A DNA stretch of 64,000 nt, taken from a virus. Location of the stretch: IMG/VR virus record IMGVR_UViG_3300045988_046889; one strand, written 5' to 3'. The position numbers and the translations under genes were made by a program. Below the pieces are notes generated by a model, which was given only the letters and a program-made list of their open reading frames with translations, did no database searches and had not been told where the DNA came from. Positions 1-32,583 of this stretch are shown one piece after another (the first letter of the stretch is position 1; each line of letters opens with the position of its first letter).

Positions 1-129
1 CCAAGTTCCTCTTATTAAAGCTGCCTTAGGTAAATCAACTTTGTCTATATAACATAATAGTCGAGTTCCTTTATAGATAATCTCTAAAGCTACTACATTG
101 TCATCTATTTCTACCACTCTGTTTTTCAT
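1..129 (-). CDS. partial gene (N-terminal 43 codons; C-terminal part lies beyond the window start)
   Basis: ATG at 129..127 on the minus strand, open to the window edge; begins MKNRVVEIDDNVVALEIIYKGTRLLCYIDKVDL; no domain recognised. Confidence 0.3.
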   Translation of the reverse strand, partial: MKNRVVEIDDNVVALEIIYKGTRLLCYIDKVDLPKAALIRGTW

Positions 130-130
130 A

Positions 131-931
131 CTATTTTCTTATTTTACTTAAATCCAAAAATGTAGAAGTATTCCCACCAGTGATTACTGTTGGTACAGTC
201 CCATCCCATTTCTCAATCCACATCTTCTCAAGGATTTCAGGGGTAAGTGCTTGCTGTCTCAACTCATTGGCCTTTTTCTCTGCCTCTGCTGCTACAATAA
301 GCTTCTTGGCTTGTGCCTCTGCTACCTTCACCTCATTCTCCACCTGCATAGCCTGTTGGATAGCTTTATTCTTGGCATTTACTGACTCTACAATGGTCTG
401 AGGATATTTGAGACCTGAAGTGAGTTGTTCTAATTGGAAGTTCTCTTTGGCAAGTGCTTGAGCCAAGTACCTTTCAATAGCATTTTCAATACTGTCCCTT
501 TTACTTACAATATCATCTGTGGTAAACTTGTTTAATTGGATTCTAAAAGCATCCTTTACATAATTATATAGTGTACCACTAATGACTTCACTTAATTCCT
601 TCCTGTATTTCTTGAAGACAGCAGGTGATTTACCATCAATAATCTTCAATGAAACAGTGGGGTCTACAGTGAACTCGGAACCATCCTTTGCATTGATTGT
701 AAAAGGTTCATAATCAATGGTCTGTACATAAGTAGGATACTCATATACTGTAGTGGTCCAAGGATTATACCACACAATGCCAGTTACCAAAGAAGCATCA
801 TCTACCCCCTTGTCATTACCATATAAGTTCACCTTAATGCCCTCACAGCCTGCATCTACCTTCTCCATGCATGATGTTACTGAGAGCATTACAAATAGGG
901 ACAATATCCCTAGAATCAATTTACTTTTCAT
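131..931 (-). CDS. SPFH/band-7 (prohibitin/HflC-like) membrane-anchored protein with signal peptide
   Basis: 266 aa; N-terminal hydrophobic signal ending ...SVTSC (possible lipoprotein); C-terminal half has the Ala/Glu/Lys-rich coiled coil typical of SPFH proteins (AQAKKLIVAAEAEKKANELRQQA). Confidence 0.55.
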   Translation of the reverse strand: MKSKLILGILSLFVMLSVTSCMEKVDAGCEGIKVNLYGNDKGVDDASLVTGIVWYNPWTTTVYEYPTYVQTIDYEPFTINAKDGSEFTVDPTVSLKIIDGKSPAVFKKYRKELSEVISGTLYNYVKDAFRIQLNKFTTDDIVSKRDSIENAIERYLAQALAKENFQLEQLTSGLKYPQTIVESVNAKNKAIQQAMQVENEVKVAEAQAKKLIVAAEAEKKANELRQQALTPEILEKMWIEKWDGTVPTVITGGNTSTFLDLSKIRK

Positions 932-1118
932 CTCTTTTAAATTTAATTGTTGTTAAACATTTTGTTTTAATTGATAAATAGAATATTACTACTATCAAAA
1001 GAAATCCTAATACATTCTCAACAGAATTTGGTATTGACATCATTCCAAGCCCTAATGTGAGCAGGGCAACGAAGATTATAAACCATACAGCAATCTTTGC
1101 TACTATTTCAGCTTTCAT
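921..1118 (-). CDS. small two-TM membrane protein, overlaps the SPFH gene start (possible NfeD-like partner)
   Basis: 65 aa, two hydrophobic helices, 11-nt overlap with the downstream SPFH gene. Confidence 0.4.
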   Translation of the reverse strand: MKAEIVAKIAVWFIIFVALLTLGLGMMSIPNSVENVLGFLLIVVIFYLSIKTKCLTTIKFKRDEK

Positions 1119-1241
1119 ACCACTCCAATTTTCATGTTTTTTTTTGTCAAACTTATATTTACTTAATCAATAGGTTGTAAAAAAAAAGAAAGGTAAGGAT
1201 GTTATCAGTATCCTTACCTTTACTATGAAAATATTCCTTAC

Positions 1242-1676
1242 TTAGTCTCCAAATATCTGATAAGAATATGAAGTACCACCAAGATGCTCTACTGTCCTCT
1301 TCAAGTGAGCCTCAAGCCTTTCTTTTTTATTCATTGCAGACCATTCTCTTGGCTTGAAACATGGAGGACAAGAATCCTTGCTAATCATGTACTCATAAGC
1401 CTCCTTACTCATGTTGATAGTCTGAGTAGCCGGTTTACATTTTCTAGTGTGGAAGGTGATAATCTCAGGATTTTTCCCATTCTTATCAGTTATCCTCGCA
1501 GAGCCTTTGGTCATCTTGTCCAAATCTTCAGTTTGAACATAGATGGTCTTCTTAAATACTTTACCAGATTTGGTTTTTCTCTCAATGACTTTTCGAGTTG
1601 TTTTAAGGCACTCCTCCTTGCTGAGCATTGTACTTCCTTGAAGTTCAATACTTAGACTTAATTTGATTTCACTCAT
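1242..1676 (-). CDS. hypothetical protein
   Basis: 144-aa ORF with ATG start, tightly packed with neighbours. Confidence 0.5.
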   Translation of the reverse strand: MSEIKLSLSIELQGSTMLSKEECLKTTRKVIERKTKSGKVFKKTIYVQTEDLDKMTKGSARITDKNGKNPEIITFHTRKCKPATQTINMSKEAYEYMISKDSCPPCFKPREWSAMNKKERLEAHLKRTVEHLGGTSYSYQIFGD

Positions 1677-1684
1677 TATTTTTC

Positions 1685-2005
1685 TTACCTTAAACCTCCG
1701 AAGGTTTGTGCTACGACTTCAAGGGTAATAGCCTCTCTCATTTTCTCAGAAATTACTTTCTGTAACATTAAAGGAAGTTCTGACATCAAGGCTGCGATTA
1801 TCATGCCCTTAGATTGGGCATCCTTTAATCTGCTAAACTCAATCAGACAGTTATCCAGCACATCCTCTGTACAACTGTCCCCTGTTGCTTTCCCAATCTC
1901 GATGACTCCTTCCCTAAACCTTTGTCTTGTTCTCAATGACATGCTTGTTCCTGGTGCCTTCTCTACTTTCTGTTTCAGGCCCTCTTCTTGTTTTTCTTGT
2001 TCCAT
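1685..2005 (-). CDS. hypothetical protein
   Basis: The ORF track begins at a TTG at 2026; the first in-frame ATG (MEQEKQEEG...) is at 2005. Confidence 0.45.
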   Translation of the reverse strand: MEQEKQEEGLKQKVEKAPGTSMSLRTRQRFREGVIEIGKATGDSCTEDVLDNCLIEFSRLKDAQSKGMIIAALMSELPLMLQKVISEKMREAITLEVVAQTFGGLR

Positions 2006-2032
2006 CACTTTTTTTTTGTAAAACAATATGTG

Positions 2033-2209
2033 TTAAATACCACTACTATTATCATATTTACACTCTATACAGATGTATCCTTCTGGATTGTAAGTACCAC
2101 ACTTAGGGCATTCCCATATATTCCTTACATCCCAGTTTTGAATATACCCTTTGAGTTTTAGTAAATGATTATACTCCTCTACAGGAATAGTTATAGTTTC
2201 CTCTTCCAT
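2033..2209 (-). CDS. small zinc-ribbon protein
   Basis: CPKCG...CIEC four-cysteine motif; the track start is TTG, the ATG is at 2209. Confidence 0.4.
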   Translation of the reverse strand: MEEETITIPVEEYNHLLKLKGYIQNWDVRNIWECPKCGTYNPEGYICIECKYDNSSGI

Positions 2210-2411
2210 TTCCAATGTGTGTCTAATCAATTAAATAAAGAAGACCTATATTCACATACCAGCCTTCTGTAGCAATATTACTATTGCCCAAACTAAAAAC
2301 CAATCTTACTTATGCAAACAAAACTATACCCTTATATGAGTAAGTATCATTATAACTTTCTTTGTACTCCCAACAAGACTTGAACTTGTGTCTTAAAGTT
2401 AAAAGAAATAG

Positions 2412-2485
2412 TGGCTGATGGGGGACTCCAACTCCCAACCTGAGGTTTAGGAAACCTCTGCTCTATGCAGTTGAGCTAATCAGCC
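2412..2485 (-). tRNA. tRNA-Arg(CCT)
   Basis: Reverse complement folds as a cloverleaf: acceptor GGCTGAT/ATCAGCC, anticodon stem GAGGT/ACCTC with loop TTCCTAA; D- and T-loops are atypical (T-loop TTGGAGT). Confidence 0.45.
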
Positions 2486-2752
2486 TTTTGCATTTTCTGT
2501 TAATGAATGACAATTAGGACATAATACTTGAAGATTATCTTCACAGTTATTTTCCGAATTACCATCAATATGATGAATTTGAAGTGGTACTTTATTGGTA
2601 TAAGGATTTACTTCTCCCCATCCACATTTTTCACATTTGTAGTTTACTTTCTCCAGTAAGTAATTTCTTATTGGAGAGCTACAGGTGAATCCATTTGTAC
2701 CATTAATTTCTCCTGATTTCCATGCTTTAATATATTGTTGTTTTTTGTACAT
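2480..2752 (-). CDS. HNH homing endonuclease
   Basis: CEKCGWGE...LQIHHIDGNSENNCEDNLQVLCPNCH = CxxC...HH...N...CxxC HNH motif; the stop codon overlaps the 5' end of tRNA-Arg(CCT). Confidence 0.65.
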   Translation of the reverse strand: MYKKQQYIKAWKSGEINGTNGFTCSSPIRNYLLEKVNYKCEKCGWGEVNPYTNKVPLQIHHIDGNSENNCEDNLQVLCPNCHSLTENAKG

Positions 2753-2841
2753 TGATGCACACTTTCTACTACAATATTTGTTATAGGAAGCTGGATATTT
2801 AATAAAAGATTTACCGCAATATTGACATATTGCAGTATTTG

Positions 2842-3138
2842 CTAACCCCCTATTAAATGTCTCTTTAGGATTAATTTTTCTTCTTCTTGATAATTGTATT
2901 CCAATCCTTGAAGCTGCTTTATAGGAATACCACCTACTGTAATGTCTGTTGTATCCTCACAACAAGGAGATATTGAAACTACCTGCATTGGAGTGCTGTA
3001 CATTGGTGAATCTATTAGGTCATCTATTTTCACCTCGGAATAATCACACAAGAAGGCATATTTCTTTAAATTAGCACCTATAATCTGCCTGGATGTGAGG
3101 TACTCTTTGGTGTAGACTACATAAATTATTCGTGTCAT
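2842..3138 (-). CDS. hypothetical protein
   Basis: 98-aa ORF with ATG start. Confidence 0.45.
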   Translation of the reverse strand: MTRIIYVVYTKEYLTSRQIIGANLKKYAFLCDYSEVKIDDLIDSPMYSTPMQVVSISPCCEDTTDITVGGIPIKQLQGLEYNYQEEEKLILKRHLIGG

Positions 3139-3308
3139 ATTTTATTTACCTAATCTTTTGATTGTAAATACTCCATATTTAAAGGACTTCTTGAGAGCAA
3201 ATTGTAATGCGCTCCCAATAGTCCTTGTACATATGTATTTTCTAACTCTTGAAGGCTTATAGAATGTCACAAGATACTTGTGCTTTCTTTTGAAAATAGA
3301 ATTGATAT

Positions 3309-3524
3309 TCATTTCTTTCTTTTGTATTTGTAGAGCTCTTTCCTAGCTTCTTTGTCATTCCTATAATTAGTTGTAGTGATTTTGCCTGTAATAGATATTA
3401 TACTTATACTGTACTGGAATGCATATTGACCACCAAGTATTATTTCTCTTCCATAGTTGTCTACTATAATTTCTCTAATGAGACAATCACAGTTTTCTTT
3501 GTGATATGTATGCTTTCTTGCCAT
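3309..3524 (-). CDS. hypothetical protein
   Basis: 71-aa ORF with ATG start. Confidence 0.35.
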   Translation of the reverse strand: MARKHTYHKENCDCLIREIIVDNYGREIILGGQYAFQYSISIISITGKITTTNYRNDKEARKELYKYKRKK

Positions 3525-3527
3525 AGC

Positions 3528-3830
3528 TTAATCATCATAAGGTCTGACAAAAGTATATACATATACATCAAGCTCCTCATTATACTCAAACTCATGATAA
3601 GTGTGAAGAGCATTAGCCATTGAAGGCTGCTGATTATTCCTCATCACCCATTCTTCTCTTTCCCAAGAGCCATCATTCATAATAGATTTTATGGCATTGT
3701 GAGCACGAAGATAGTCCTTATCATTGGTCTTGATGTGATACACATGTCTCTGTGTGTAGTCTTTTTGAGACAATTCTGGCTTATACTCTATCTTATAAAG
3801 TATGCCATTATAACATGATATTTTATTCAT
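3528..3830 (-). CDS. hypothetical protein
   Basis: 100-aa ORF with ATG start, 3-nt gap to the upstream gene. Confidence 0.45.
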   Translation of the reverse strand: MNKISCYNGILYKIEYKPELSQKDYTQRHVYHIKTNDKDYLRAHNAIKSIMNDGSWEREEWVMRNNQQPSMANALHTYHEFEYNEELDVYVYTFVRPYDD

Positions 3831-3858
3831 TTGATTGTGAATTACTGTGTAAACTTAT

Positions 3859-3990
3859 TACCAACCGTGGTCTATATATGTTGCCCCATTTATGTAGGCA
3901 TATCTATCATCAAAGGTAAATTCTTTGGTGAATTCTCTGGGATTTTCTTTTGTCTGTGACCCATATTTGTTATTTATTTCTTTACTCATG
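3859..3990 (-). CDS. small hypothetical protein (44 aa)
   Basis: ATG...TAA ORF (MSKEINNKYGSQTKENPREF...) below the 60-aa track threshold. Confidence 0.2.
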
Positions 3991-4295
3991 ACAGATAAAA
4001 TTTGATTGTTTGCTAATTTTTCAAGGATGAATGGTTATTGTACACAGTAAAAACAACTATGTATTACCCCATTTGTTACTTTTCTAATGTGAGGATAATA
4101 GTCTTACTGGAAGGGGTTTGTTTGATAAATTTTACCATCTGATTGTTCCCTTATCTTATTCTATATCACCATGTTAGACCCAATAAGAGTATTACTTATT
4201 GTAAATATTGCTTACTACATAATATGAGGTGTAGCATATCTAAGAAGTTATACTAAGAGGTAACTAATTCCTATTTGTATACTTTCACACAACAA

Positions 4296-4549
4296 ATACT
4301 ATTAATGTCTAAGTGATAAACTTATTAGTGTCTAAGTGATAAACTTATTGATGACTAAATGATAAACTTATTGATATTTAGATAATAAGCTTATTGATAT
4401 TTAGATGATAAACCTATTGATATTTAGATGATAAGCTTATTAGTGTTTAAGTGATAAGCTTATTGATATTTAAGTGATAAACTTATTGATGTTTAAGTGA
4501 CAAGCTTATTAATGTCTAAATGATAAACCTATTAATGTCTAAGTGATAA
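4296..4549. repeat. tandem array of about 11 iterons (22-23 bp) each containing the palindrome ATAAGCTTAT or ATAAACTTAT
   Basis: Units such as ctaagtgataaacttattagtgt / ttagatgataagcttattgatat repeat head-to-tail with no unique spacers. Confidence 0.85.
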
Positions 4550-4604
4550 GATAAGAAATAAGAAAAGGGTAAGCAGGCACTTTTGCCTGCTAACCCTTGA
4601 TACT

Positions 4605-4865
4605 TTAGAAAGTTGCCAATACAGGTGCTCCACCTTGGCCTTCCTCATGAAGAAGCCAGAATTTGTCACCATCAGGAGTAGTAACATTGCTGACCATAGG
4701 ATTATGAGGAATACCTTTGGCTGCTACAGCTCCAGTCTTTGCACCATAGGCAAAGAATAACTTGCCTGTCTTGGGATTCTTTTTAACACTCAGTTTATCT
4801 ACATGCATTACTGCTTTAAACTGCTCAACTGTCAATGTGTCATTGAATACTAAATTTCTTTCCAT
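4605..4865 (-). CDS. hypothetical protein
   Basis: 86-aa ORF with ATG start; last gene of the leftward block. Confidence 0.45.
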   Translation of the reverse strand: MERNLVFNDTLTVEQFKAVMHVDKLSVKKNPKTGKLFFAYGAKTGAVAAKGIPHNPMVSNVTTPDGDKFWLLHEEGQGGAPVLATF

Positions 4866-5056
4866 AATGTAATTTGTTAATTGTTAATAATGTGAATTTT
4901 TAACCTGAGGGGGTAGGACCCCCATGGGCTAAGTGATGGGGGAGGTGAGGTTGGTGTTACCACCCCTCATAGAAATATCACAAAAAAAAAATATTATAAA
5001 AAAAAAAAATTATTCTAAATTATTGTTACATATTTGCATATATCAGATTTTTTACT

Positions 5057-5064
5057 TACCTTTG
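5057..5064 (+). promoter_or_regulatory. Bacteroidota-type -7 promoter element (TAccTTTG)
   Basis: Matches TAnnTTTG, followed by CAG; lies in the divergent intergenic region after a poly-A tract. Confidence 0.3.
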
Positions 5065-5441
5065 CAGTTGTGTTGGAGTAACAAGTACTTCAGGATAGAG
5101 ATTCATCAACTCTTAAAAGCATAGATGACCCTTTATAATCAGGAGTTTATTTGGGCACAGCAGCTTAGGAAAGCAAAGGATACTAAGAAGGCTACAGGCA
5201 AGTGCCCCACTTGAAGAGGATTACAAATAAGTATTTAGCCGAGCTTTAGGCCAAGTCTTCAAGGGTGGTGTAAAAGACTACAGAGATAACACAGAGTGAG
5301 AACTAATAATATATAAACGGGGTAAAAGACTGATTATAAGGATGCAAGCCATAATGCTGGCAGGGTCTCTTTATATTTTAAGAAAAGATTTGATAATTCT
5401 AGATTCTGTTGGAATAAGGATAAATAGGTTATATAGATAAG

Positions 5442-5843
5442 ATGATTAAGATAAAAGAAAGTATTAAGTGGTTGTGGCAGCTACCACAAAACATGTTGGC
5501 TTTGTGCATTGAAGGTGTACTATGTAGTACAGCATACAGGGAGGGTGAAGCAGATGGCAATACCATTATAGTGAATAGTGTATTACCTTCAGCTATGTCT
5601 TTGGGAGATTATCTCTTTGTAAACCCTATGTCTTCAGAAAGGACAATTAAGCATGAGTGTGGACACAGTAAGCAATCAGATATATTGGGTCCTTTATATT
5701 TGATAGTAATTGGAGCACCCTCATTACTACATAATATAATACATTCTATATGTAGTAGAGCAGGGTTTAAGTGGGATTACTACAGCTTCTATACTGAGAA
5801 GTGGGCTGACAGATTAGTAGGTATAGACAGGAGTATCTCTTAG
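5442..5843 (+). CDS. small HExxH-motif protein (putative zinc metallopeptidase-like)
   Basis: 133 aa; the motif HECGH sits in the middle of the protein; ATG start. Confidence 0.4.
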   Translation: MIKIKESIKWLWQLPQNMLALCIEGVLCSTAYREGEADGNTIIVNSVLPSAMSLGDYLFVNPMSSERTIKHECGHSKQSDILGPLYLIVIGAPSLLHNIIHSICSRAGFKWDYYSFYTEKWADRLVGIDRSIS

Positions 5844-5939
5844 GTAGATACCTAACCAGCTTATTTTCTCACCTTCTAGTGGAAAATTGCTATAATAAAA
5901 AAAGAGCTGGTAATATTTGGATGTGTGAAAAATAATACT

Positions 5940-5947
5940 TATCTTTG
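5940..5947 (+). promoter_or_regulatory. Bacteroidota-type -7 promoter element (TAtcTTTG) upstream of the tRNA array
   Basis: tatctttgcag about 115 nt upstream of the first tRNA. Confidence 0.4.
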
Positions 5948-6063
5948 CAGTGTCAAAGATAAGAAGATAAGAAATGTGTTTTAGGATTAAAGAAGTACTA
6001 CCTTTTTTTTCTTGATAATCTGTTCATACTTGCGTATTTCTAACATAAAGGTAGTACTTCTTT

Positions 6064-6134
6064 TTCTTTATTTTGTCTTGTGGTGTAAAGGTAACACATG
6101 GGTCTTTGGTCCCCACATTGTAGGTTCAAGTCCT
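6064..6134 (+). tRNA. tRNA-Gln(TTG)
   Basis: acceptor TGTCTTG/CAAGACA, D-stem GTGT/ACAC, anticodon loop CTTTGGT, T-arm GTAGG-TTCAAGT-CCTGC. Confidence 0.5.
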
Positions 6135-6153
6135 GCCAAGACAACAAGAAGAT

Positions 6154-6225
6154 GCCCTCTTAGTACAAAGGACAGTACATAAGTCTTCTAAACTTAGAAT
6201 ATAGGTTCGATTCCTATAGGGGGTA
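6154..6225 (+). tRNA. tRNA-Arg(TCT)
   Basis: acceptor GCCCTCT/AGGGGGT, D-stem GTAC/GTAC, anticodon stem TAAGT/ACTTA with loop CTTCTAA, T-loop TTCGATT. Confidence 0.65.
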
Positions 6226-6233
6226 CTTGTTAT

Positions 6234-6305
6234 GGGGATGTAGACTATGGGTTAGGTCATAGCCCTTTCAAGGCTAAGGATAAGGTTCAAATCCTTACTT
6301 CCCTA
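6234..6305 (+). tRNA. tRNA-Glu(TTC)
   Basis: anticodon stem TAGCC/GGCTA with loop CTTTCAA; U8, D-stem GACT/GGTC; T-arm TAAGG-TTCAAAT-CCTTA. Confidence 0.6.
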
Positions 6306-6310
6306 CTAAT

Positions 6311-6383
6311 AGATTATGTGGTGTAGTGGTCTGCATATCACACTGTCAATGTGAAGGCTAGGGTTCAATTCCCTCATAATCTG
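6311..6383 (+). tRNA. tRNA-Asp(GTC)
   Basis: acceptor (A)GATTAT(G)/(C)ATAATC(T), anticodon stem TCACA/TGTGA with loop CTGTCAA, T-loop TTCAATT. Confidence 0.6.
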
Positions 6384-6443
6384 CCCCGTTTATAAGAAAG
6401 TCCTATATCACAGCGGTGATTAGGCAAATGGAAAGGTAACTGA

Positions 6444-6704
6444 ATGGGATTCAGCCTAGTCTTGAAAACTAAGGGAACAGTAAAATGTTTGGGGGTCGGG
6501 ACCTCATCTTTCCGCATGAATAGCAAAAGAATAGGTAATATAGGAGAAGCTAAAGCTTTAGCTAAATTTGTAGAATTAGGTATCCCTGTTTATATACCAT
6601 TTGGTGACAATGAATCAGCAGACTTAATAGCTGAATTTAATGGTAAACTAAACAAGATACAATGTAAAACTACTGCTGCCATAAGTGAGCAATATGGAGA
6701 GTAA
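6444..6704 (+). CDS. hypothetical small protein inside the tRNA array
   Basis: 86-aa ORF with ATG start; its last codons overlap the 5' end of tRNA-Ser(GCT). Confidence 0.25.
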   Translation: MGFSLVLKTKGTVKCLGVGTSSFRMNSKRIGNIGEAKALAKFVELGIPVYIPFGDNESADLIAEFNGKLNKIQCKTTAAISEQYGE

Positions 6705-6781
6705 ATTGCTGAGGTAGCAATCCCCTCTGCTAAAGGGTGAGTACAATAAAATGTATGTGTTTCGAGTACACTGCTCTCCGC
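6697..6781 (+). tRNA. tRNA-Ser(GCT), long variable arm
   Basis: acceptor GGAGAGT/GCTCTCC (7 bp, one GU), D-stem ATTG/CAAT, anticodon loop CTGCTAA, 16-nt variable arm, T-arm TGTGT-TTCGAGT-ACACT. Confidence 0.5.
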
Positions 6782-6884
6782 AATAAACATTATGTAGGAG
6801 TTAAGGTATGAGGCTGGGTTCTTCCTACTTATATAGGTGTAATAGTGTACATAAAAACTTATGTAAAGCCAGCCAACGATAACA

Positions 6885-6957
6885 TAGTAGTAGCCTAATG
6901 GGTGGGGCACTGCATTTGGGATGCAGAGGATGCAGGTTCGAGTCCTGTCTACTATAC
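6885..6957 (+). tRNA. tRNA-Pro(TGG)
   Basis: acceptor ATAGTAG/CTACTAT, anticodon stem CTGCA/TGCAG with loop TTTGGGA, T-loop TTCGAGT. Confidence 0.65.
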
Positions 6958-6969
6958 TAATCATTAATG

Positions 6970-7042
6970 GGGAGGTAGCATAAATGGATAATGCGCTAGA
7001 TTTGCACTCTGGAAGATTGGGTTCGAGTCCCACCTGCTCCAC
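6970..7042 (+). tRNA. tRNA-Ala(TGC)
   Basis: acceptor GGGGAGG/CTGCTCC including the G3:U70 alanine identity pair; anticodon stem CTAGA/TCTGG with loop TTTGCAC; T-loop TTCGAGT. Confidence 0.65.
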
Positions 7043-7125
7043 ATTGTTTTCTTGTTTTTCATAATACTAAGCTATGCTTGAACCCTCTTTTGGGCAGTTA
7101 GAGGTTAAAGAAACTGCCCTATCAA

Positions 7126-7199
7126 TGCTCCTTAGTTCAGTGGTTCAGAATAGTTCCCTTACAAGGAAAAGGTCATAGGTTCGAGTCCTATAGGAGCAA
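7126..7199 (+). tRNA. tRNA-Val(TAC)
   Basis: acceptor TGCTCCT/AGGAGCA, anticodon loop CTTACAA, T-arm ATAGG-TTCGAGT-CCTAT. Confidence 0.6.
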
Positions 7200-7204
7200 C
7201 TAAT

Positions 7205-7276
7205 GGGGATGTAGCTGGAAGGTCTATGCACTTGGCTGTTAACCAAGAGATAAAAGTTCGATTCTTTTTATCCCCG
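7205..7276 (+). tRNA. tRNA-Asn(GTT)
   Basis: acceptor GGGGATG/TATCCCC, anticodon stem CTTGG/CCAAG with loop CTGTTAA, T-loop TTCGATT. Confidence 0.6.
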
Positions 7277-7284
7277 CAAATTTT

Positions 7285-7356
7285 AGGTTCTTAGTTTAAT
7301 TGGCAAAACACTTCTCTCCAAAAGAAGAGTTATGGGTTCGATTCCTTTAGAATCTG
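7285..7356 (+). tRNA. tRNA-Trp(CCA)
   Basis: acceptor AGGTTCT/AGAATCT, D-stem GTTT/AAAC, anticodon stem CTTCT/AGAAG with loop CTCCAAA, T-loop TTCGATT. Confidence 0.65.
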
Positions 7357-7362
7357 CATTAT

Positions 7363-7434
7363 TGGCACATCTTCTAATGGTCAGGAAGCTACTCTGATAA
7401 GGTAGTAATCAAGGTTCAATTCCTTGTGTGCCAA
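7363..7434 (+). tRNA. tRNA-Ile(GAT)
   Basis: acceptor TGGCACA/TGTGCCA, anticodon stem CTACT/GGTAG with loop CTGATAA, T-arm CAAGG-TTCAATT-CCTTG. Confidence 0.65.
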
Positions 7435-24742: not shown

Positions 24743-25003
24743 ATGATTATGGATGCAAGAATAGTTTCAAATCAAGTTATAAATAGCCTTCAAATATCTG
24801 TACTGAAGGAAGTGCCTTCAGGGAACTTCAATCCTGGAGTCAACTTCCTACTGAAGAATATATCTGATGATGATGTGGAGGTTACTATAATTCCAGCAGG
24901 ACAAAAGGATAGCATAAAGACTATTCTAGGTGTTGGATGGAATCCAGAGATATGTAAAGGTGTTATAAATGCTCCTTCAGGAGTTCTTCAATATGGATAT
25001 TAA
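24743..25003 (+). CDS. hypothetical protein
   Basis: 86-aa ORF with ATG start, 4 nt before the next gene. Confidence 0.4.
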   Translation: MIMDARIVSNQVINSLQISVLKEVPSGNFNPGVNFLLKNISDDDVEVTIIPAGQKDSIKTILGVGWNPEICKGVINAPSGVLQYGY

Positions 25004-25006
25004 GAT

Positions 25007-27106
25007 ATGGCAATAGCAATTATAGGTACATTAAAGCATCTTCCTAAGGCATCAATACTGCCTACTTTACCAGAGACAGGTAGACCTAACAGGATATATT
25101 TTATCCCCAATGAAGACCCTACAGAAGATAATAGGTATAATGAATATCTATGGGTAAAGGATGAGACTTATCCTGATGGCCATTGGGAGCTTGTTGGTCC
25201 TACCACAATAGACCTGACTGATTATGCCACTAAGGAAGAGGTAAGTGATTTGGAAGACTCCATAGGTGAGCAAATAAAGAAGTATTTGCCCTTATCAGGA
25301 GGTACAATGGATAAGGGCAGCAACATATCCTTCCCATCAGATAGTGGGAGTACTGTGTATAATGGTTCTGGAATATCAGTGGGTGGCAAAGCCAGTACTG
25401 ACATCCTACATGCAGCAGGAGGCACTACTAAAGTTAAAACCTTGAATGGGGAATCTATATTAGGAGAAGGTAATATTGTAATAAATCCTTCAAGTGTTCC
25501 AGTATCTTTAAGTTGGTATAATAGGACTAGCAGTCAATATGATGCTACAATAAACCTGACAATTGGGGATACCACAGTAAACCTATTCCCTAATATATTC
25601 AAATTGTTTAAATCTGGTGTAATTTCCACCTCCGAGTCCCTTAGTATAGAACTTACTGCTAATCCTGGGGGAAGTGGGACACCACAAGTTCCTACCTCAT
25701 TATGCCAGTGGAGCATACCTTTGGCTGACGGTAATACCGCAGGTATTATATCAAGTGAGGATAAGGCTAAGTTAGATAATCTATCTGACCCAAAGAATTT
25801 GCTAGCTTATGGTGTGGAATGGGATTCTACCAACAGTAGTCCTGTACTTACTAGAATAGGTAACATGAGCCTGCATAAGTCTCTCCCAATACAATCAGCA
25901 TTAAGAGGATGTGTATGCCAAGGTAAAAGGATAATGTATTATTTGGACCCAAATGACTGGTCTAAGAAAGCAGATGGTACAGATTCCAGATTGGATGGAT
26001 ATGATGGTACTGTGCAGGTAGAGGTACCTGAATTTTATTTGTGGTCTGAAACAGAAGGAACCAAGTCCAGAGTATATGTGTCTACCCAAAAAGTAGTTCC
26101 TTATGCTGTAAGGATTCCTCATATGTTGGTAGATGCTTACAGGAGTACTATTCTCAATGAAGTGCCTGAGAACATGGGCTATCTATCTACACTTCAAGTC
26201 AATAGTGCTATTTCAGTTGTAAATACCTCTTCTTATTGCAGAGGAGGAAATAATAGCTCTAGCAGTGATACCTACTTGGAATCAGATAAATTCAGGACTA
26301 ATTTAGGAAAACCTAGAACAAGCACTAGTAGGGCAAACTTCAGAACTTATGCCAAAAATGCTGGCAAGATGCTGCTCACCTATGAATATTACAAGGCAAT
26401 ATTCTATTGGTTGTATGTTATAGAATATGCAAACTTCAATAGTCAGGCAAACTATGTTGAAGATTTGACTGAAGATGGATATAGACAGGGAGGGCTTGGT
26501 AGTGGAGTTACTACTTGGAGTGATACTGTTTGGAATACTTATAATGGCAGATGCCCAATAACTCCATGTGGATATTGTAATGAGTTTGGTAACTTTACTG
26601 GAATTAAGGACTTGGTAATTCCTGCTTCAGATGGTATCAGTACCATAACTTTCAAAGTACCAAGGTGGAGAGGATTTGATAACGTGTTTGGAGATGTTTG
26701 GACTAATCTGGATGGTATCCTAATAGATACTCCTGTCGGTGCCAGTGAGTCTACACCAAATTATGTGTATATTATAAATGACCCTGATAAGTTCACTGAT
26801 ACTTTGTCAGATGCACCTACCAATGCGGATAGAGTAGTAGTATCAAGACATGCAGGAGGGTATATTACAAAGTGGGCATTAGGGGAGTATGCAGATATAA
26901 TACCTGTTGGTGTTGGTGGTTCTGCAACCACTTATATGTGTGACTATTACTGGGCAGATTACGATAATACTCAGAATACGCTGCTGGTTGGTGGCCGGGC
27001 TGTTGATGGTGGTTTTACTGCTGGCTTGGCTGCCTTCGGTTCTACTGTTGGTTCGGGTCATGTTGATGCCTCTGTCAGCTTTAGGTGTTTAACACTAATA
27101 AGCTGA
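25007..27106 (+). CDS. tail fibre/receptor-binding protein; its C-terminus (ending SFRC, C-type-lectin/FGE-like) is the target of a diversity-generating retroelement
   Basis: 699 aa; N-terminal YLWVKDETYPDGHWELVG fibre motif; C-terminal ...WADYDNTQNTLLVGGRAVDGGFTAGLAAFGSTVGSGHVDASVSFRCLTLIS overlaps the VR. Confidence 0.6.
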   Translation: MAIAIIGTLKHLPKASILPTLPETGRPNRIYFIPNEDPTEDNRYNEYLWVKDETYPDGHWELVGPTTIDLTDYATKEEVSDLEDSIGEQIKKYLPLSGGTMDKGSNISFPSDSGSTVYNGSGISVGGKASTDILHAAGGTTKVKTLNGESILGEGNIVINPSSVPVSLSWYNRTSSQYDATINLTIGDTTVNLFPNIFKLFKSGVISTSESLSIELTANPGGSGTPQVPTSLCQWSIPLADGNTAGIISSEDKAKLDNLSDPKNLLAYGVEWDSTNSSPVLTRIGNMSLHKSLPIQSALRGCVCQGKRIMYYLDPNDWSKKADGTDSRLDGYDGTVQVEVPEFYLWSETEGTKSRVYVSTQKVVPYAVRIPHMLVDAYRSTILNEVPENMGYLSTLQVNSAISVVNTSSYCRGGNNSSSSDTYLESDKFRTNLGKPRTSTSRANFRTYAKNAGKMLLTYEYYKAIFYWLYVIEYANFNSQANYVEDLTEDGYRQGGLGSGVTTWSDTVWNTYNGRCPITPCGYCNEFGNFTGIKDLVIPASDGISTITFKVPRWRGFDNVFGDVWTNLDGILIDTPVGASESTPNYVYIINDPDKFTDTLSDAPTNADRVVVSRHAGGYITKWALGEYADIIPVGVGGSATTYMCDYYWADYDNTQNTLLVGGRAVDGGFTAGLAAFGSTVGSGHVDASVSFRCLTLIS
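26987..27088 (+). repeat. DGR variable repeat (VR) within the last 34 codons of the fibre gene
   Basis: Aligns with the downstream copy at 27188..27286; 21 of 22 substitutions fall where the downstream copy has A; hairpin GTGTTtAACAC at 27086..27096. Confidence 0.75.
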
Positions 27107-27187
27107 TTTGATAAAGAAAAGAAAATCATAGTTTCACTATGTAGGACATATGTTATACGACTTGGTTAGTTCTAATTGTAAAAACCA

Positions 27188-27286
27188 GTTAGTAGCAAGG
27201 CTAATAATGGTTCTACTGCTAGCTTGGCTAACTTCAATTCTACTAATAGTTCAGGTAATGTTAATGCCAATGTCAGCTTTAGGTAT
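27188..27286 (+). repeat. DGR template repeat (TR), non-coding, rich in AAT/AAC/AGT codons in the fibre frame
   Basis: gtt agt agc aag gct aat aat ggt tct act gct agc ttg gct aac ttc aat tct act aat agt tca ggt aat gtt aat gcc aat gtc agc ttt agg tat. Confidence 0.75.
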
Positions 27287-27572
27287 TTTTTTTTTGTTTT
27301 CTTCTTGAATTTTATATGTGATACATGTTCCTTGCCTCTAGGCAAAAGATAAATAGTTTAAAAAGTGCTAGTAAGGGTTGCTGAAAGTGCTTAATATGAA
27401 ACACCTAAATTATGGTTAAAAGAAAAGGAAATTTGATTTCATCCCTATGCAGGATGGATAATATTCTCTTGGCAGATACAAATGCTAGGAAAGCTAAAAG
27501 GAGGAGTAGAAGTACTCAAGGATTGCTTAATAGCTTTGGTGGAATTTATTGAAGTAATTAGGAGAAGAAGAT

Positions 27573-27914
27573 ATGATAACTCAAAGAAAGACTATAATAC
27601 CCATATTCAATTATAAGCTTACCATAGTCATATTTGATAGATGGGAAGAGTTGGAAGGAAGTATACCTCAGGATGAAATGGATACAGAAGCAAATGCTAT
27701 TACCATAAGTGCATATGGAGCATCTTTAGTAGCTGTTAATTCAAGGAGAGGAAGTAGCATAGTCCATGAGGCTGAGCATATAAAGAATCATATATGGCAG
27801 TACATAGGATACACCCCTCAGAGAGATAATGATGATGTGGATGCATACTTGCTGACTTACATATATAATAAGATAACACAAGTATTTTATAAGCATAAAG
27901 ACGATAAGGAGTAA
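27573..27914 (+). CDS. hypothetical acidic protein downstream of the TR
   Basis: 113-aa ORF with ATG start; acidic overall, which argues against an Avd-like DGR accessory protein. Confidence 0.4.
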   Translation: MITQRKTIIPIFNYKLTIVIFDRWEELEGSIPQDEMDTEANAITISAYGASLVAVNSRRGSSIVHEAEHIKNHIWQYIGYTPQRDNDDVDAYLLTYIYNKITQVFYKHKDDKE

Positions 27915-27920
27915 TATAGT

Positions 27921-27949
27921 AGGAGGTAATTATTACCTCCTTTTTTTTT
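27921..27949 (+). terminator. rho-independent terminator
   Basis: GGAGGTAAT/ATTACCTCC stem followed by T9. Confidence 0.7.
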
Positions 27950-28076
27950 GTACATATGTTACTAAGTTAAAGCCCAAGGTATAATCTTGCCCTTTCTTTT
28001 TGCATATATAATAAGTATCTTATTTGTGCTTGCAAAGTAATTTATTTACTATATTGTATGGGTGTAAAATTCTATA

Positions 28077-29378: not shown

Positions 29379-30128
29379 GTGTATAAGGATAAGTCTGCTT
29401 CTTACTCTTCACTTATAGAGGTGTGTGAGAACACGGATAATCCTTCACTTCCATATGTATTTACATTAGGTCCTGCTAAAAGCTGTAGGGTAATATGTGT
29501 CAATAAACTTAGTCGTATTGATACTACCAATGTAAAAGATAAGACTAAGATATTCATAGCAAGTATGATTCATTCCAGATATGGCTCCAATGAATCTGTC
29601 ACTCCCGGTTTTGGAATTTGGGGAATGTATAGTAGTATTGTCATGCCGGGGATATATCTTATTTACTCAATGGGTAACAATGTATCAGTAACAGTAACAC
29701 CCATTACTGACAGTAATGATATAAAGAAACTATCTCAAGGCTCTTTGGATGAACCACCTTCAGAAATTATGACTCCAGGTCTTAAACTACAGAAGTTTAC
29801 TCCGATAATGTTGTTTTCTGAATTTACCAATTCAAGGATACTTTGGAACACAGATAATACAAAAGCTTTCATTTCATGTGGTGGAGGCTGCTTCATTCCT
29901 GTATTGCTTTTTAGGAATGGAAAAGACTTGAAGTCTGAAAGATTTAATCCTGAAAGCATAAGAAAGGCATTGACTTCCAAAGACGAAGTTCTGTTATTGT
30001 TCTCATCCCTTTCTTATCACGATAATGAATTGAAGGTACTAAAGGATGGTACTACTTATAAGTTGAATAAGACTTGGGAGGACTTAGGACTTCAGGATTT
30101 GTATGAAGAATATTTAAAATCTAAGTAA
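29379..30128 (+). CDS. hypothetical structural-module protein
   Basis: 249-aa ORF; the track start is GTG (the first ATG is far internal), so the start is uncertain. Confidence 0.35.
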   Translation: MYKDKSASYSSLIEVCENTDNPSLPYVFTLGPAKSCRVICVNKLSRIDTTNVKDKTKIFIASMIHSRYGSNESVTPGFGIWGMYSSIVMPGIYLIYSMGNNVSVTVTPITDSNDIKKLSQGSLDEPPSEIMTPGLKLQKFTPIMLFSEFTNSRILWNTDNTKAFISCGGGCFIPVLLFRNGKDLKSERFNPESIRKALTSKDEVLLLFSSLSYHDNELKVLKDGTTYKLNKTWEDLGLQDLYEEYLKSK

Positions 30129-30161: not shown

Positions 30162-31538
30162 ATGGCTGGAAAATTAGGTAAGTTTCAGATGGTGGGCTTC
30201 CAACATTGGAAGGGTTTGACTAAAGAGAACCACCTAGGCTCTATCTATCAGTTAGCTCCGCAAAGAGCTACAAACCTAATGGTACAACTGCTGGCCTTCT
30301 ATAGAGGAAAGACACTTGATTCATTCTTGAATCAGTTCCCTGTAAAGGAGTTCGAGGATGACAGTGAATACTACTGGGACGTTATTGGTTCTTCAAGAAG
30401 GAATATTCCTTTGGTAGAGGCAAGAAAAGAGGATGGAACAAAGGTTGAAGATGATGGTAGTATGATTGGAGAGGGTACTTCTCCCTTCTATCTTGTTTTC
30501 CCTGAGGACTGGTTTGCAGATGGTGAGTACATTGTGGGTAATCTAAATGAACTGTACCAATTCAGAATTTTAGGAGACCCTAGAATGGAAGGTACCAATG
30601 CAGTTTATAAGGTAGAACTTGCTGGAGGTAATACAGCAGGAATTCCTGCTGAAAGGCTACTTGCAGGAGAGAGATTCTCTATTGAAGCTGCATTTGTAGA
30701 AAAGGAACTATCAAGAAAAGTTGGTGATGTAAGATATACAAGCCCTGTTTCTATGAGGAATGAGTGGTCTGTAGTAAGAATCCAACACAAGGTTCCGGGT
30801 TCAATGCTGAGCAAGAAGTTGGCTGTAGGTATTCCTATTATCAAGGAGACTGATGGTAGATATACCAAGTCAATAGCTAAAATGTGGATGCATAATGTGG
30901 ACTTTGAGGTAGAACAACAATTCTCTGAGTACAAGAACAATGCTCTTGCATTTGGTAGAAGCAACAGAAACTCCAATGGTGAATATATGAACATTGGTAA
31001 GTCTGGTGGTGTAATCAAGACTGGTGCTGGTCTGTTTGAGCAGATGGAAGTTGCTAATACTATGTACTACAATGTATTCAGCTTGAAGCTTCTTGAGGAT
31101 GCCCTATATGAGCTTTCTGCTTCTAAATTGGACTTTGGTGATAGATACTTCCTAATCAAGACTGGTGAAAGAGGTGCTATTCAATTCCACAAGGAAGTGT
31201 TGAAGACAGTATCAGGTTGGACACAGTTTGTTCTTGATAACAACTCTATTGGTGTTGTTCAGAAGACTCAGTCTCAGTTGCATCAAAATGCCCTGAGTGC
31301 AGGTTTCCAATTTGTAGAATATAGAGCACCTAATGGTGTAAGGGTTAAGATTGATGTAGACCCATTCTATGATGACCCTGTTAGAAATAAGATACAACAT
31401 CCAAATGGAGGTGTTGCCTTCTCTTACAGATATGATATTATGTATATTGGTACTATGGACCAACCTAATATCTTCAAGTGTAAGATTAAGGGTGATAATG
31501 AATATAGAGGTTACCAATGGGGATTAATGGCTGCATAA
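30162..31538 (+). CDS. putative major capsid protein
   Basis: 458 aa; position after the scaffold-like gene, size and mixed alpha/beta composition; no motif-level proof. Confidence 0.4.
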   Translation: MAGKLGKFQMVGFQHWKGLTKENHLGSIYQLAPQRATNLMVQLLAFYRGKTLDSFLNQFPVKEFEDDSEYYWDVIGSSRRNIPLVEARKEDGTKVEDDGSMIGEGTSPFYLVFPEDWFADGEYIVGNLNELYQFRILGDPRMEGTNAVYKVELAGGNTAGIPAERLLAGERFSIEAAFVEKELSRKVGDVRYTSPVSMRNEWSVVRIQHKVPGSMLSKKLAVGIPIIKETDGRYTKSIAKMWMHNVDFEVEQQFSEYKNNALAFGRSNRNSNGEYMNIGKSGGVIKTGAGLFEQMEVANTMYYNVFSLKLLEDALYELSASKLDFGDRYFLIKTGERGAIQFHKEVLKTVSGWTQFVLDNNSIGVVQKTQSQLHQNALSAGFQFVEYRAPNGVRVKIDVDPFYDDPVRNKIQHPNGGVAFSYRYDIMYIGTMDQPNIFKCKIKGDNEYRGYQWGLMAA

Positions 31539-31665
31539 GCCTTTGCACATTTCTCAGTTCCCATAGCCTGACCTAGAAACAGAAGAGAGGCTAAAAATAA
31601 AACAAGGTTAATTGCTGGAAGTTCCTTAGAGCTTTCACTGCTTTTTAAACTTCAAACATTTAAAT

Positions 31666-32253
31666 ATGGAAGTTAAAGAATTATGGAAGTCCCTTGAAGA
31701 GTATAAGGGTATTAGAGTAAGCTCAATTGGTAGAATATGGAAAGCTGCCAATAAGAGTAGAAAAGAGAGAATATTGACAGAGTTTCCAAAAGATAGAGAT
31801 GGTTATTGTAGAGTCTCAGTTCAGAAATTGGATGGAACTTGGACTTCACAACCAGTACATAGATTAGTTGCTAAAGCATTTATCCCTAATCCAGATAATA
31901 AACAAGCAGTTAATCATATAGATGGAAACAGACAAAATAATAGGATTGAAAATCTAGAGTGGGTAACTCCAAAGGAAAACGTAATACATTCTTTTAGATT
32001 TGGGTCAAGAAGAGTATATAAGGAAGTTCCTAAGAAGACAATTCTAACAGATTTTCAAATAAGTCAGATAGATAAACTTAGAGAGACATATACAGTCAAT
32101 CAGATTGCTAAACTCTTTAATATAGAATATCAATCTCTTAAAAACATAATTCATAAAAAGAAACAATGTGAAAGATTGGATAATCAGCAGCCAAGCATAT
32201 ATAATAGTATATATGAAGGTTCAGAGACTATCCCAGATGGGAGTAAGCATTAA
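31666..32253 (+). CDS. HNH homing endonuclease (HNH_3/NUMOD type)
   Basis: HRLVAKAFIPNPDNKQAVNHIDGNRQNNRIENLEWVTPKEN is the canonical HNH_3 motif; free-standing after the putative MCP. Confidence 0.65.
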   Translation: MEVKELWKSLEEYKGIRVSSIGRIWKAANKSRKERILTEFPKDRDGYCRVSVQKLDGTWTSQPVHRLVAKAFIPNPDNKQAVNHIDGNRQNNRIENLEWVTPKENVIHSFRFGSRRVYKEVPKKTILTDFQISQIDKLRETYTVNQIAKLFNIEYQSLKNIIHKKKQCERLDNQQPSIYNSIYEGSETIPDGSKH

Positions 32254-32583
32254 GTAATGCTGAAATGCCTTGCTCATCTAAATAGATGATGAAGATATAG
32301 TCCGAACTTTAGTGAAAGCTAAAGATATTACATGGGCACGATGTAATAGTAACATAAAAATGTGAGAAATCCATTTACAGGACAGATAGGTAATCCTTAC
32401 ATGTCATTTGATGAGGATGCTGCTGTAATACACAGAATGGCTACTCTTGGTATCTGTGTTCTTGACCCAACAAGAACTATGTCATTGATTCCTGCTATTT
32501 TGCAAGGATAAACTATAAAGGGGAGTAGGGGTAACTCCTGCTTCCCTTAATTTATTTTTATTTCTATTAAATAAGGAGAAGAT

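Follow-up and report, generated by a model that had tools for sequence, protein, structure and literature searches.

A tail-fibre diversity-generating retroelement that has probably lost its reverse transcriptase by deletion in place in a crAss-like phage genome

The subject of this work is a 64,000-nucleotide (nt) stretch of the virus record IMGVR_UViG_3300045988_046889, hereafter the window, in which the 3' end of a tail-fibre gene and a non-coding copy downstream of it form the variable region (VR) and template region (TR) of a diversity-generating retroelement (DGR). Our analyses indicate that this is very probably a real DGR of the avd-less type, in which the target gene with its VR is followed by the TR and a reverse transcriptase (RT), and that it has recently been orphaned, its cis elements remaining intact and its RT gene having been deleted in place. 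It is a DGR remnant and not a complete member of the class, because the RT beside the TR is reduced to codons 1-33. Judged by its sequence, the window is part of a gut crAss-like phage (Crassvirales, Steigviridae, Kahnovirus oralis, cr85_1-like): the genome of cr85_1 (NC_055883.1) is 97.2% identical to it over 83% of a 5.5-kb query, and the open reading frame (ORF) at 30162-31538 encodes a Crassvirus major capsid protein (Pfam Crass_capsid, E 6e-206). The window corresponds to positions 7376-71375 of the 98,077-bp ENA contig ERZ27261318:k119_126390, with which an 8.1-kb stretch was found to be identical. It was compared with a sibling set of about 36 contigs of Kahnovirus oralis, for which IMG/VR and metagenome contigs were scanned for the conserved fibre end.

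The DGR target gene (25007..27106; all features of the locus described here lie on the + strand) encodes a 699 amino acid (aa) tail-fibre or receptor-binding protein, which matches PHROG 5302 ('tail protein', E 5e-81), is 93-94% identical to the fibres of cr85_1 and the siblings, and ends in ...LLVGGRAVDGGFTAGLAAFGSTVGSGHVDASVSFRCLTLIS. The VR (26987..27088, 102 nt), delimited by pairwise alignment and in-register comparison, ends 5 codons before the fibre stop codon, and the TR (27188..27286, 99 nt, including 28 A), delimited by its alignment with the VR, starts about 100 nt past that codon, is non-coding and is followed by a run of T at 27287-27296. Weak homology between the two possibly begins 3 nt earlier (26984 and 27185), and it ends with ...AGGTGT before TTAACAC in the VR and with ...AGGTAT before TTTTTT in the TR. 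Between the copies there are 22 substitutions, of which 21 coincide with TR adenines and one is a C/T mismatch (TR column 26), and there is a 3-nt insertion that gives the VR one extra in-frame codon. With 28 A among the 99 TR positions, the hypergeometric probability that at least 21 of 22 substitutions fall on A is 1.5e-14. The TR adenines occupy codon positions 1, 2 and 3 in 17, 10 and 1 cases, respectively, as in AAY-rich DGR templates. An earlier note on this DNA had read this A-specific asymmetry as the mark of a DGR whose VR/TR pair lies at the tail-fibre 3' end, and its table of differences was reproduced by our alignment. The GTGTT-t-AACAC hairpin that it also cited in support is weak (-3.4 kcal/mol as DNA, including an outer stem; the sequence of the relatives, GTGCTTAACAC, has one pair fewer and -2.9 kcal/mol) and provides no evidence either way.

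The siblings provide a further line of evidence. When 34 sibling VRs (31 distinct) were aligned to the consensus TR, 26 of the 31 columns with a TR adenine were found to vary, compared with 8 of the 68 other columns (Fisher P 3e-12), and the mean entropy was 1.08 bits in the TR-A columns, 0.11 in the other VR columns and 0.14 in the 300 nt upstream, where 37 of 300 columns vary. Hypervariability at the VR A-sites of related genomes, which the earlier note had expected of a DGR, is thereby found, and this concentration of sequence variation is evidence that the DGR worked in this lineage.

A Pfam search of the fibre identified no FGE, C-type-lectin or DUF1566 family, and a profile search of PDB sequences with the fibre domain returned no match; because these sequence-level searches found no family, the fold was examined by structure prediction. 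The AlphaFold2 model of residues 255-699 (33-sequence alignment, predicted template modelling score 0.84, mean predicted local distance difference test 74.8) assigns a predicted C-type-lectin/FGE-like fold to the C-terminal 445 aa (25769..27103), as had been proposed for this C-terminus before. The last ~34 residues of the domain are VR-encoded, and model confidence is low within the VR, as expected of a hypervariable segment. The domain family comprises more than 6,500 proteins. A PilS Pfam match in the fibre was discarded as a chance match.

At the place that the RT occupies in a target-VR-TR-RT cassette, the window retains a stub of a DGR RT gene (27412..27512), located by tblastn and by a profile hidden Markov model (HMM), which consists of codons 1-33 and 2 nt, after which the ORF reads into unrelated DNA as far as a stop at 27552. 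This ORF (27412-27552, 46 codons) has the sequence MVKRKGNLISSLCRMDNILLADTNARKAKRRSRSTQGLLNSFGGIY. Its 5' part, used as the query of an exact DNA search, is present in two IMG/VR contigs, and in one of these the start continues into an RT with the motifs ...LDITKFYPSIDH..., ...GVPIGNYLSQYFANLYL... and YYYRYADDIVILG. When the 64-kb window was searched with a sibling RT (tblastn), residues 1-33 matched 27412-27510 with 100% identity (E 8e-15), and the rest of the 64 kb contained no match better than E 1. A profile HMM of 67 DGR RTs from IMG/VR, applied without any filters to the window translated in all six frames, found a sole match at 27409-27549 (HMM positions 1-33, E 5.5e-6), and the 6.9 kb beyond the right end of the window on the same contig (L124) contain no RT profile match. 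As judged from these searches, no functional RT is encoded in the window, only the first 33 codons of one. The earlier statement that the window holds no RT is correct for a functional enzyme; it missed the stub, which lies in an ORF under the 60-aa cut-off that had been used.

The origin of the stub is indicated by L111 (UEYF01000054.1, 102.7 kb), a sibling that contains the whole cassette, viz. the fibre gene, VR and TR, then 125 nt of spacer and an RT of 338 aa that is uninterrupted and has a YADD box (Pfam RVT_1, E 1e-16; PHROG 1423 'reverse transcriptase', E 9e-107). The same arrangement, with an intact RT of 344 aa, is found in L004, a more distant relative; the TR of L004 was missed by a repeat search with 8-nt seeds, which are broken by A-site mismatches, and was read from the sequence instead. 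Past the RT, L111 has, in order, a 135-aa ORF, an HTH_17 protein, a GIY-YIG endonuclease and a 113-aa ORF. Positions 25000-27512 of the window align with L111 937-3446 (96% identity) and positions 27514-27975 with L111 5766-6227 (97% identity), and the 2,319 bp between them (L111 3447-5765), which comprise RT codons 34-338, the 135-aa ORF, the HTH gene and the GIY-YIG gene, are absent from the window. At the junction (27504..27512) lies a 9-nt microhomology, GAGTAGAAG, read directly from the sequences, which in the intact sibling is common to RT codons 31-34 and to the intergenic DNA downstream of the GIY-YIG gene; a deletion mediated by this microhomology would account for the gap. Between the end of the fibre gene and the junction, window and L111 agree at 414 of 424 nt, with no difference in the final 185 nt (spacer and stub). 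Because of this close match, the cis elements can be considered undecayed and the loss recent on the scale of the diversity of the species. Of the alternatives offered in the earlier note, that of a very recently orphaned VR/TR pair is the one supported by the stub, the colinearity with L111 and the undecayed spacer.

The spacer between TR and RT contains, at 27328..27404, a motif like Rfam RT-17 (RF03020; 36.5 bits, E 8e-6, with a hairpin CCUUGCC-UCUA-GGCAAAA), which is likely a cis element of the TR RNA for priming or RT binding. Its score is below the gathering score of 40.4; at gathering thresholds Rfam has no match in the window region or in the intact siblings, whose RT-17 matches are also below that score. 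The Rfam RT motifs are defined by their adjacency to RT genes, and RT-10 lies between TR and brt in Bordetella phage BPP-1 (PMC5737381). The match is consistent with a DGR RNA element, though not proof of one. The ORF at 27573..27914 (113 aa, PHROG 1365, function unknown) has a 97% identical counterpart in L111 (5825-6166), 1.5 kb beyond the intact RT, and by this comparison it is an ordinary neighbour of the cassette, outside the DGR. It was considered as an Avd and rejected, since it has no Pfam match and belongs to PHROG 1365, which agrees with the earlier remark that it is not Avd-like. No avd-like gene was found in the window or, by Pfam, among the cassette neighbours of L111, and there is no ORF between VR and TR.

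These observations suggest the following course of events, in which the transcription, copying and homing steps are inferred from established DGR biology. In the intact form, represented by L111, the TR and the structured spacer would be transcribed, the adjacent 338-aa RT would copy the TR RNA with misreading of adenines, and the cDNA would replace the VR at the fibre 3' end, so that ~20 codons on the ligand-binding face of the C-type-lectin domain would be re-randomised. In the window, the 2,319-bp deletion between the two copies of GAGTAGAAG would have removed RT codons 34-338 and the three downstream genes and left the VR, the TR, the spacer RNA and the RT start untouched, and the fibre would carry a VR written by past mutagenic homing. 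The genome would be unable to rewrite this VR alone, and the VR would therefore be frozen unless an outside RT is supplied.

Several points weigh against this reading. The VR is one codon longer than the resident TR, and at three positions the TR departs from the sibling consensus by an A-to-N difference; the template of the last homing may have been a TR that differed slightly from the present one, or the resident TR may have been altered afterwards. The variability of the VR is that measured between assembled contigs. For the remaining ~27 kb of the 98-kb genome (record 1-7375 and 78242-98077), the absence of a second RT is judged solely from the analogy with cr85_1. The exact 699-aa fibre protein and the exact 113-aa protein occur on four contigs in the same gene order (the fibre-bearing contigs being 50-200 kb), and an exact copy of a 1351-aa protein of the window's genome is present on four contigs, two of which come from different datasets (ERZ27261318 and ERR1137273); the standing of the four identical-fibre contigs as independent samples is shown only in part.

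The TR itself may not have been static. The three differences of the window's TR from the sibling consensus (columns 29, 39 and 93) are all at consensus adenines, and each of these columns now has the base of the window's own VR; among the A-site TR variants of L111, L113 and L095, 4 of 5 likewise match the base of their own VR. This suggests gene conversion from VR to TR, or that mutagenised cDNA now and then homes into the TR. Siblings have a fixed TTT/TTA difference between the ends of VR and TR, which the change in column 93 abolishes in the window. The extra codon of the window's VR is located at 27011-27013, where L102 and L113 also have one (GGT-GGT / GGT-AGT), and the VR of L101 has an extra codon at another place; such VRs may stem from a TR variant with one more codon, or RT slippage may have produced them. 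In L005 / L002 (IMGVR_UViG_3300029780_000039) the RT has a frameshift near codon 112, and the TR is 7 nt shorter, adenine-depleted in its 3' two-thirds and marked by T-to-G changes, which reflects either an over-written, decayed TR or a poor-quality contig.

Loss of the RT at this locus is not confined to the window. The siblings were compared with a composite intact reference, numbered from the fibre end (position 1), with the TR at ~100-198 and the RT start at 318, and at least 14 deletion layouts were found among them. The window retains 1-417, and the simple truncations otherwise retain 1-460 (L095), 1-304 (L113), 1-259 (L094) and 1-49 (L085, L105). In a number of siblings position 50 is joined to position 735, so that they retain 1-50 together with 735 to the end (L006, L107, L110), 735-1116 (cr85_1) or 735-1064 (L088). 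Position 136 is the left edge in others, which retain 1-136 with 1240 to the end (L090, L092, L109, L115, L116), 945 to the end (L101, L108) or 799-981 (L099, L102). The remaining layouts are 1-40 with 324-368 and 736-1156 (L003), 1-58 with 324-1149 (L103), 1-222 with 1158 to the end of the reference (L087), 1-108 with 222-315 (L089, L100), 1-67 with 1363 to the end (L098) and 1-234 with 838 to the end (L012). The only demonstrably intact sibling is L111, L112 being intact as far as its locus extends. In the complete genome of cr85_1, tblastn found one fragment of an RT, covering residues 143-269 with the YADD box, at NC_055883.1 22163-22543 (L001 5437-5817) and no other RT. This fragment is unannotated in RefSeq, and the cr85_1 fibre has a VR in a genome without a TR. 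An exact search of IMG/VR for the junction of the window gave no match, none of 25 metagenome contigs has it, and an exact look-up of the 46-aa fusion ORF found none on record.

Two comparisons among the TR-less siblings concern the history of the VR after such losses. The junction that deletes the TR in L107, CATAGTTTCACT joined to TGGATATTACC, is exactly that of the cr85_1 group (L001/L006/L088/L104/L110), and L107 has a completely different VR and a fibre that is ~8% divergent from that group. L001 and L006, which are TR-less and 99.9% identical upstream, still have 4 VR differences. These differences are possibly due to recombination, to selection on point mutations or to homing in trans.

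It is unlikely that the cassette is still active, with its VR, TR and spacer RNA served in trans by an RT located outside the window, in a co-infecting sibling or in a DGR of the host or a prophage. All of the cis elements have been kept, the spacer being 100% identical to that of the RT-positive sibling, RT-positive siblings (L111 and probably L112) occur in human gut metagenomes, and the finding that L107 shares the junction of the cr85_1 group yet has another VR requires either recombination or diversification after the loss. In the BPP-1 system, too, a plasmid-supplied brt restores homing. However, no RT is present in the 64 kb, in the next 6.9 kb of the contig or elsewhere in the complete cr85_1 genome, and most RT-defective siblings lack all or part of the TR, because of which there is no sign of selection on the cis elements. 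Further, a single fibre sequence is found on all four contigs obtained by exact look-up (a method blind to variants), the junction of the window was never found with another VR, and near-identical TR-less genomes differ little in their VRs (4/99 positions, one of them non-A), unlike what fresh homing would produce. For the suggestion that RT and Avd reside elsewhere there is likewise no sign, as the intact L111 type has no avd and the one RT fragment of cr85_1 lies at the same locus. A form of trans-complementation in which RT-less genomes with VR, TR and spacer are 'cheaters', their fibre being diversified in trans during co-infection with an RT-positive sibling, is also quite unlikely; it is the sole reading with real novelty, and no observation requires it. 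If it were true, the DGR enzyme would be a shared good whose gene, being one that individual genomes can do without, is lost again and again, and the junction common to L107 and the cr85_1 group, with their unrelated VRs, would reflect trans-homing and not recombination.

That the missing RT is an assembly artefact, created by the joining of two GAGTAGAAG sites or by a mixture of strains, and that the real phage is intact, is very unlikely. Metagenome assemblies of mixed crAss-like strains are error-prone, the frameshifted RT and aberrant TR of the sibling contig L005 could be errors, and the junction is absent from IMG/VR and from the scanned metagenome contigs. Against this, a 9-nt repeat is far below the k-mer sizes of assemblers (k = 119, to judge by the contig name), the same fibre and the same 113-aa neighbour recur unchanged and in the same order on four contigs, independent assemblies of different projects, the curated cr85_1 genome among them, show more than 12 different deletions at the locus, and the same phenomenon has been independently reported in other crAss-like phages (PMC7290462). 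The view that there is no DGR here but a diverged tandem duplication of the fibre 3' end, for which only the bare existence of a direct repeat speaks, is already refuted by the one-sided A-specific mismatches (P 1.5e-14), the RT stub and RT-associated RNA motif directly downstream, the intact RT at that position in siblings, the confinement of sibling VR variation to TR-A columns and the predicted C-type-lectin fold of the target domain.

Several other features of the window and its siblings concern mobile elements and neighbouring genes. The 135-aa ORF, HTH_17 and GIY-YIG genes of L111 (4454-5703) resemble a free-standing homing-endonuclease module, and one may speculate that this module, situated beside the RT, adds to the instability of the locus via double-strand breaks and imprecise repair. 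A second deletion is located at window position 27975, where 2.5 kb (L111 6227-8702) are absent relative to L111 and also relative to cr85_1, in whose annotation the genes of this interval are a 'putative tail protein', a 'nuclear pore complex-like protein' and two hypotheticals; the same four small genes are absent or replaced by other DNA in L003, L006 and L012. The major capsid gene is split in the window (30162-32508), residues 1-455 of the cr85_1 protein corresponding to 30162-31526 and residues 455-503 to 32362-32508, and the cr85_1 gene (503 aa) is uninterrupted. The insert of ~835 nt contains an HNH_3/NUMOD4 endonuclease ORF (31666-32253) and a sub-threshold match to the group I intron family RF00028 (32096-32324, 38.9 bits, E 3e-8), and it is probably a mobile group I intron with its homing endonuclease. 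A second NUMOD4/HNH_3 endonuclease ORF, called as a gene in L124, is found at 56109-56741 (- strand) between giant virion-RNA-polymerase-like genes, so that several genes of the homing-endonuclease type are present in this genome. Between a 393-aa ORF and the capsid gene lies a 249-aa ORF (29379-30128) for which cr85_1, L006 and L111 have no equivalent, and Pfam and PHROG searches assigned it to no family; window positions 29385-29981 are unmatched in cr85_1 and 29462-29799 in L006 and L111, and L012 matches throughout.

In this virus order, VR/TR pairs that have survived deletion of the RT are a known and common phenomenon. Among genus I crAss-like phages, 16% of 91 genomes were complete in this respect and 73% had a truncated RT and/or target gene, with or without VR and TR (PMC7290462). 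Complete or incomplete cassettes were previously found in the alpha (Intestiviridae), delta (Suoliviridae) and zeta groups, and epsilon crAss-like phages have fragmented or deleted RTs (PMC11054128); one review cites DGRs for genus I only (PMC10136315). The window represents no new kind of element and no system with a remote RT, and the earlier opinion that an RT supplied from elsewhere or an orphaned pair would be unusual does not hold in view of how common incomplete cassettes are in crAss-like phages (PMC7290462, PMC11054128). The apparent paradox of a DGR signature without its enzyme is most readily settled by deletion of the gene in place, the stub and the intact sibling indicating how this occurred. 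In the open-access text searched, no statement on DGRs in Steigviridae was found (PMC11054128 and PMC10136315 list DGRs for the alpha, delta, epsilon and zeta groups), because of which the present case adds one family to the list. It extends complete and decayed DGR cassettes to Steigviridae, specifically Kahnovirus oralis, and makes this a second family in which crAss-like phages appear to lose the DGR enzyme repeatedly and independently, their fibres staying highly diverse. This recurrent loss is the point of specialist interest, as regards the cost of the RT, the role of homing endonucleases and trans-complementation; the locus is otherwise an ordinary relic.

Several known systems are close to that of the window. 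From Bordetella phage BPP-1 (mtd-avd-TR-brt) it differs in having no avd, a deleted RT, a TR placed 100 nt after the target stop codon, and no obvious GC-rich initiation of mutagenic homing (IMH) site or strong cruciform. The DGR variable proteins TaqVP (PDB 5vf4) and TvpA (PDB 2y3c) share 10-17% sequence identity with its target domain, which, unlike theirs, is fused to the N-terminal part of a phage fibre. In the epsilon group, as here, one genus holds both complete cassettes and fragmented or deleted RTs, which was read there as retrohoming no longer being used (PMC11054128); the epsilon DGRs have an RT of another clade and another receptor-binding protein, in genomes of 144-159 kb. Another close system is that of crAssphage LMMB and its genus I relatives (AlphacrAssvirinae, Intestiviridae), an avd-less lineage-3 DGR (PMC7290462). 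Because the absence of avd is typical of such lineage-3 crAss DGRs (PMC7290462), it does not exclude the window from DGR membership. The order target gene-VR-TR-RT, written for genus I as target gene-VR(IMH)-TR(IMH*)-RT, the lack of avd and the place where the tail-gene block ends are shared, and most genus I genomes are likewise incomplete, with a truncated RT and with the TR present or not (PMC7290462). The LMMB RT is 57% identical to the sibling RT and of the same RT lineage. The window differs in belonging to another family (Steigviridae, Kahnovirus) and in its longer, different fibre (699 aa, compared with 486 aa in LMMB), and for it, in contrast to LMMB and genus I, the exact deletion, its microhomology and an intact progenitor-like sibling have been identified.

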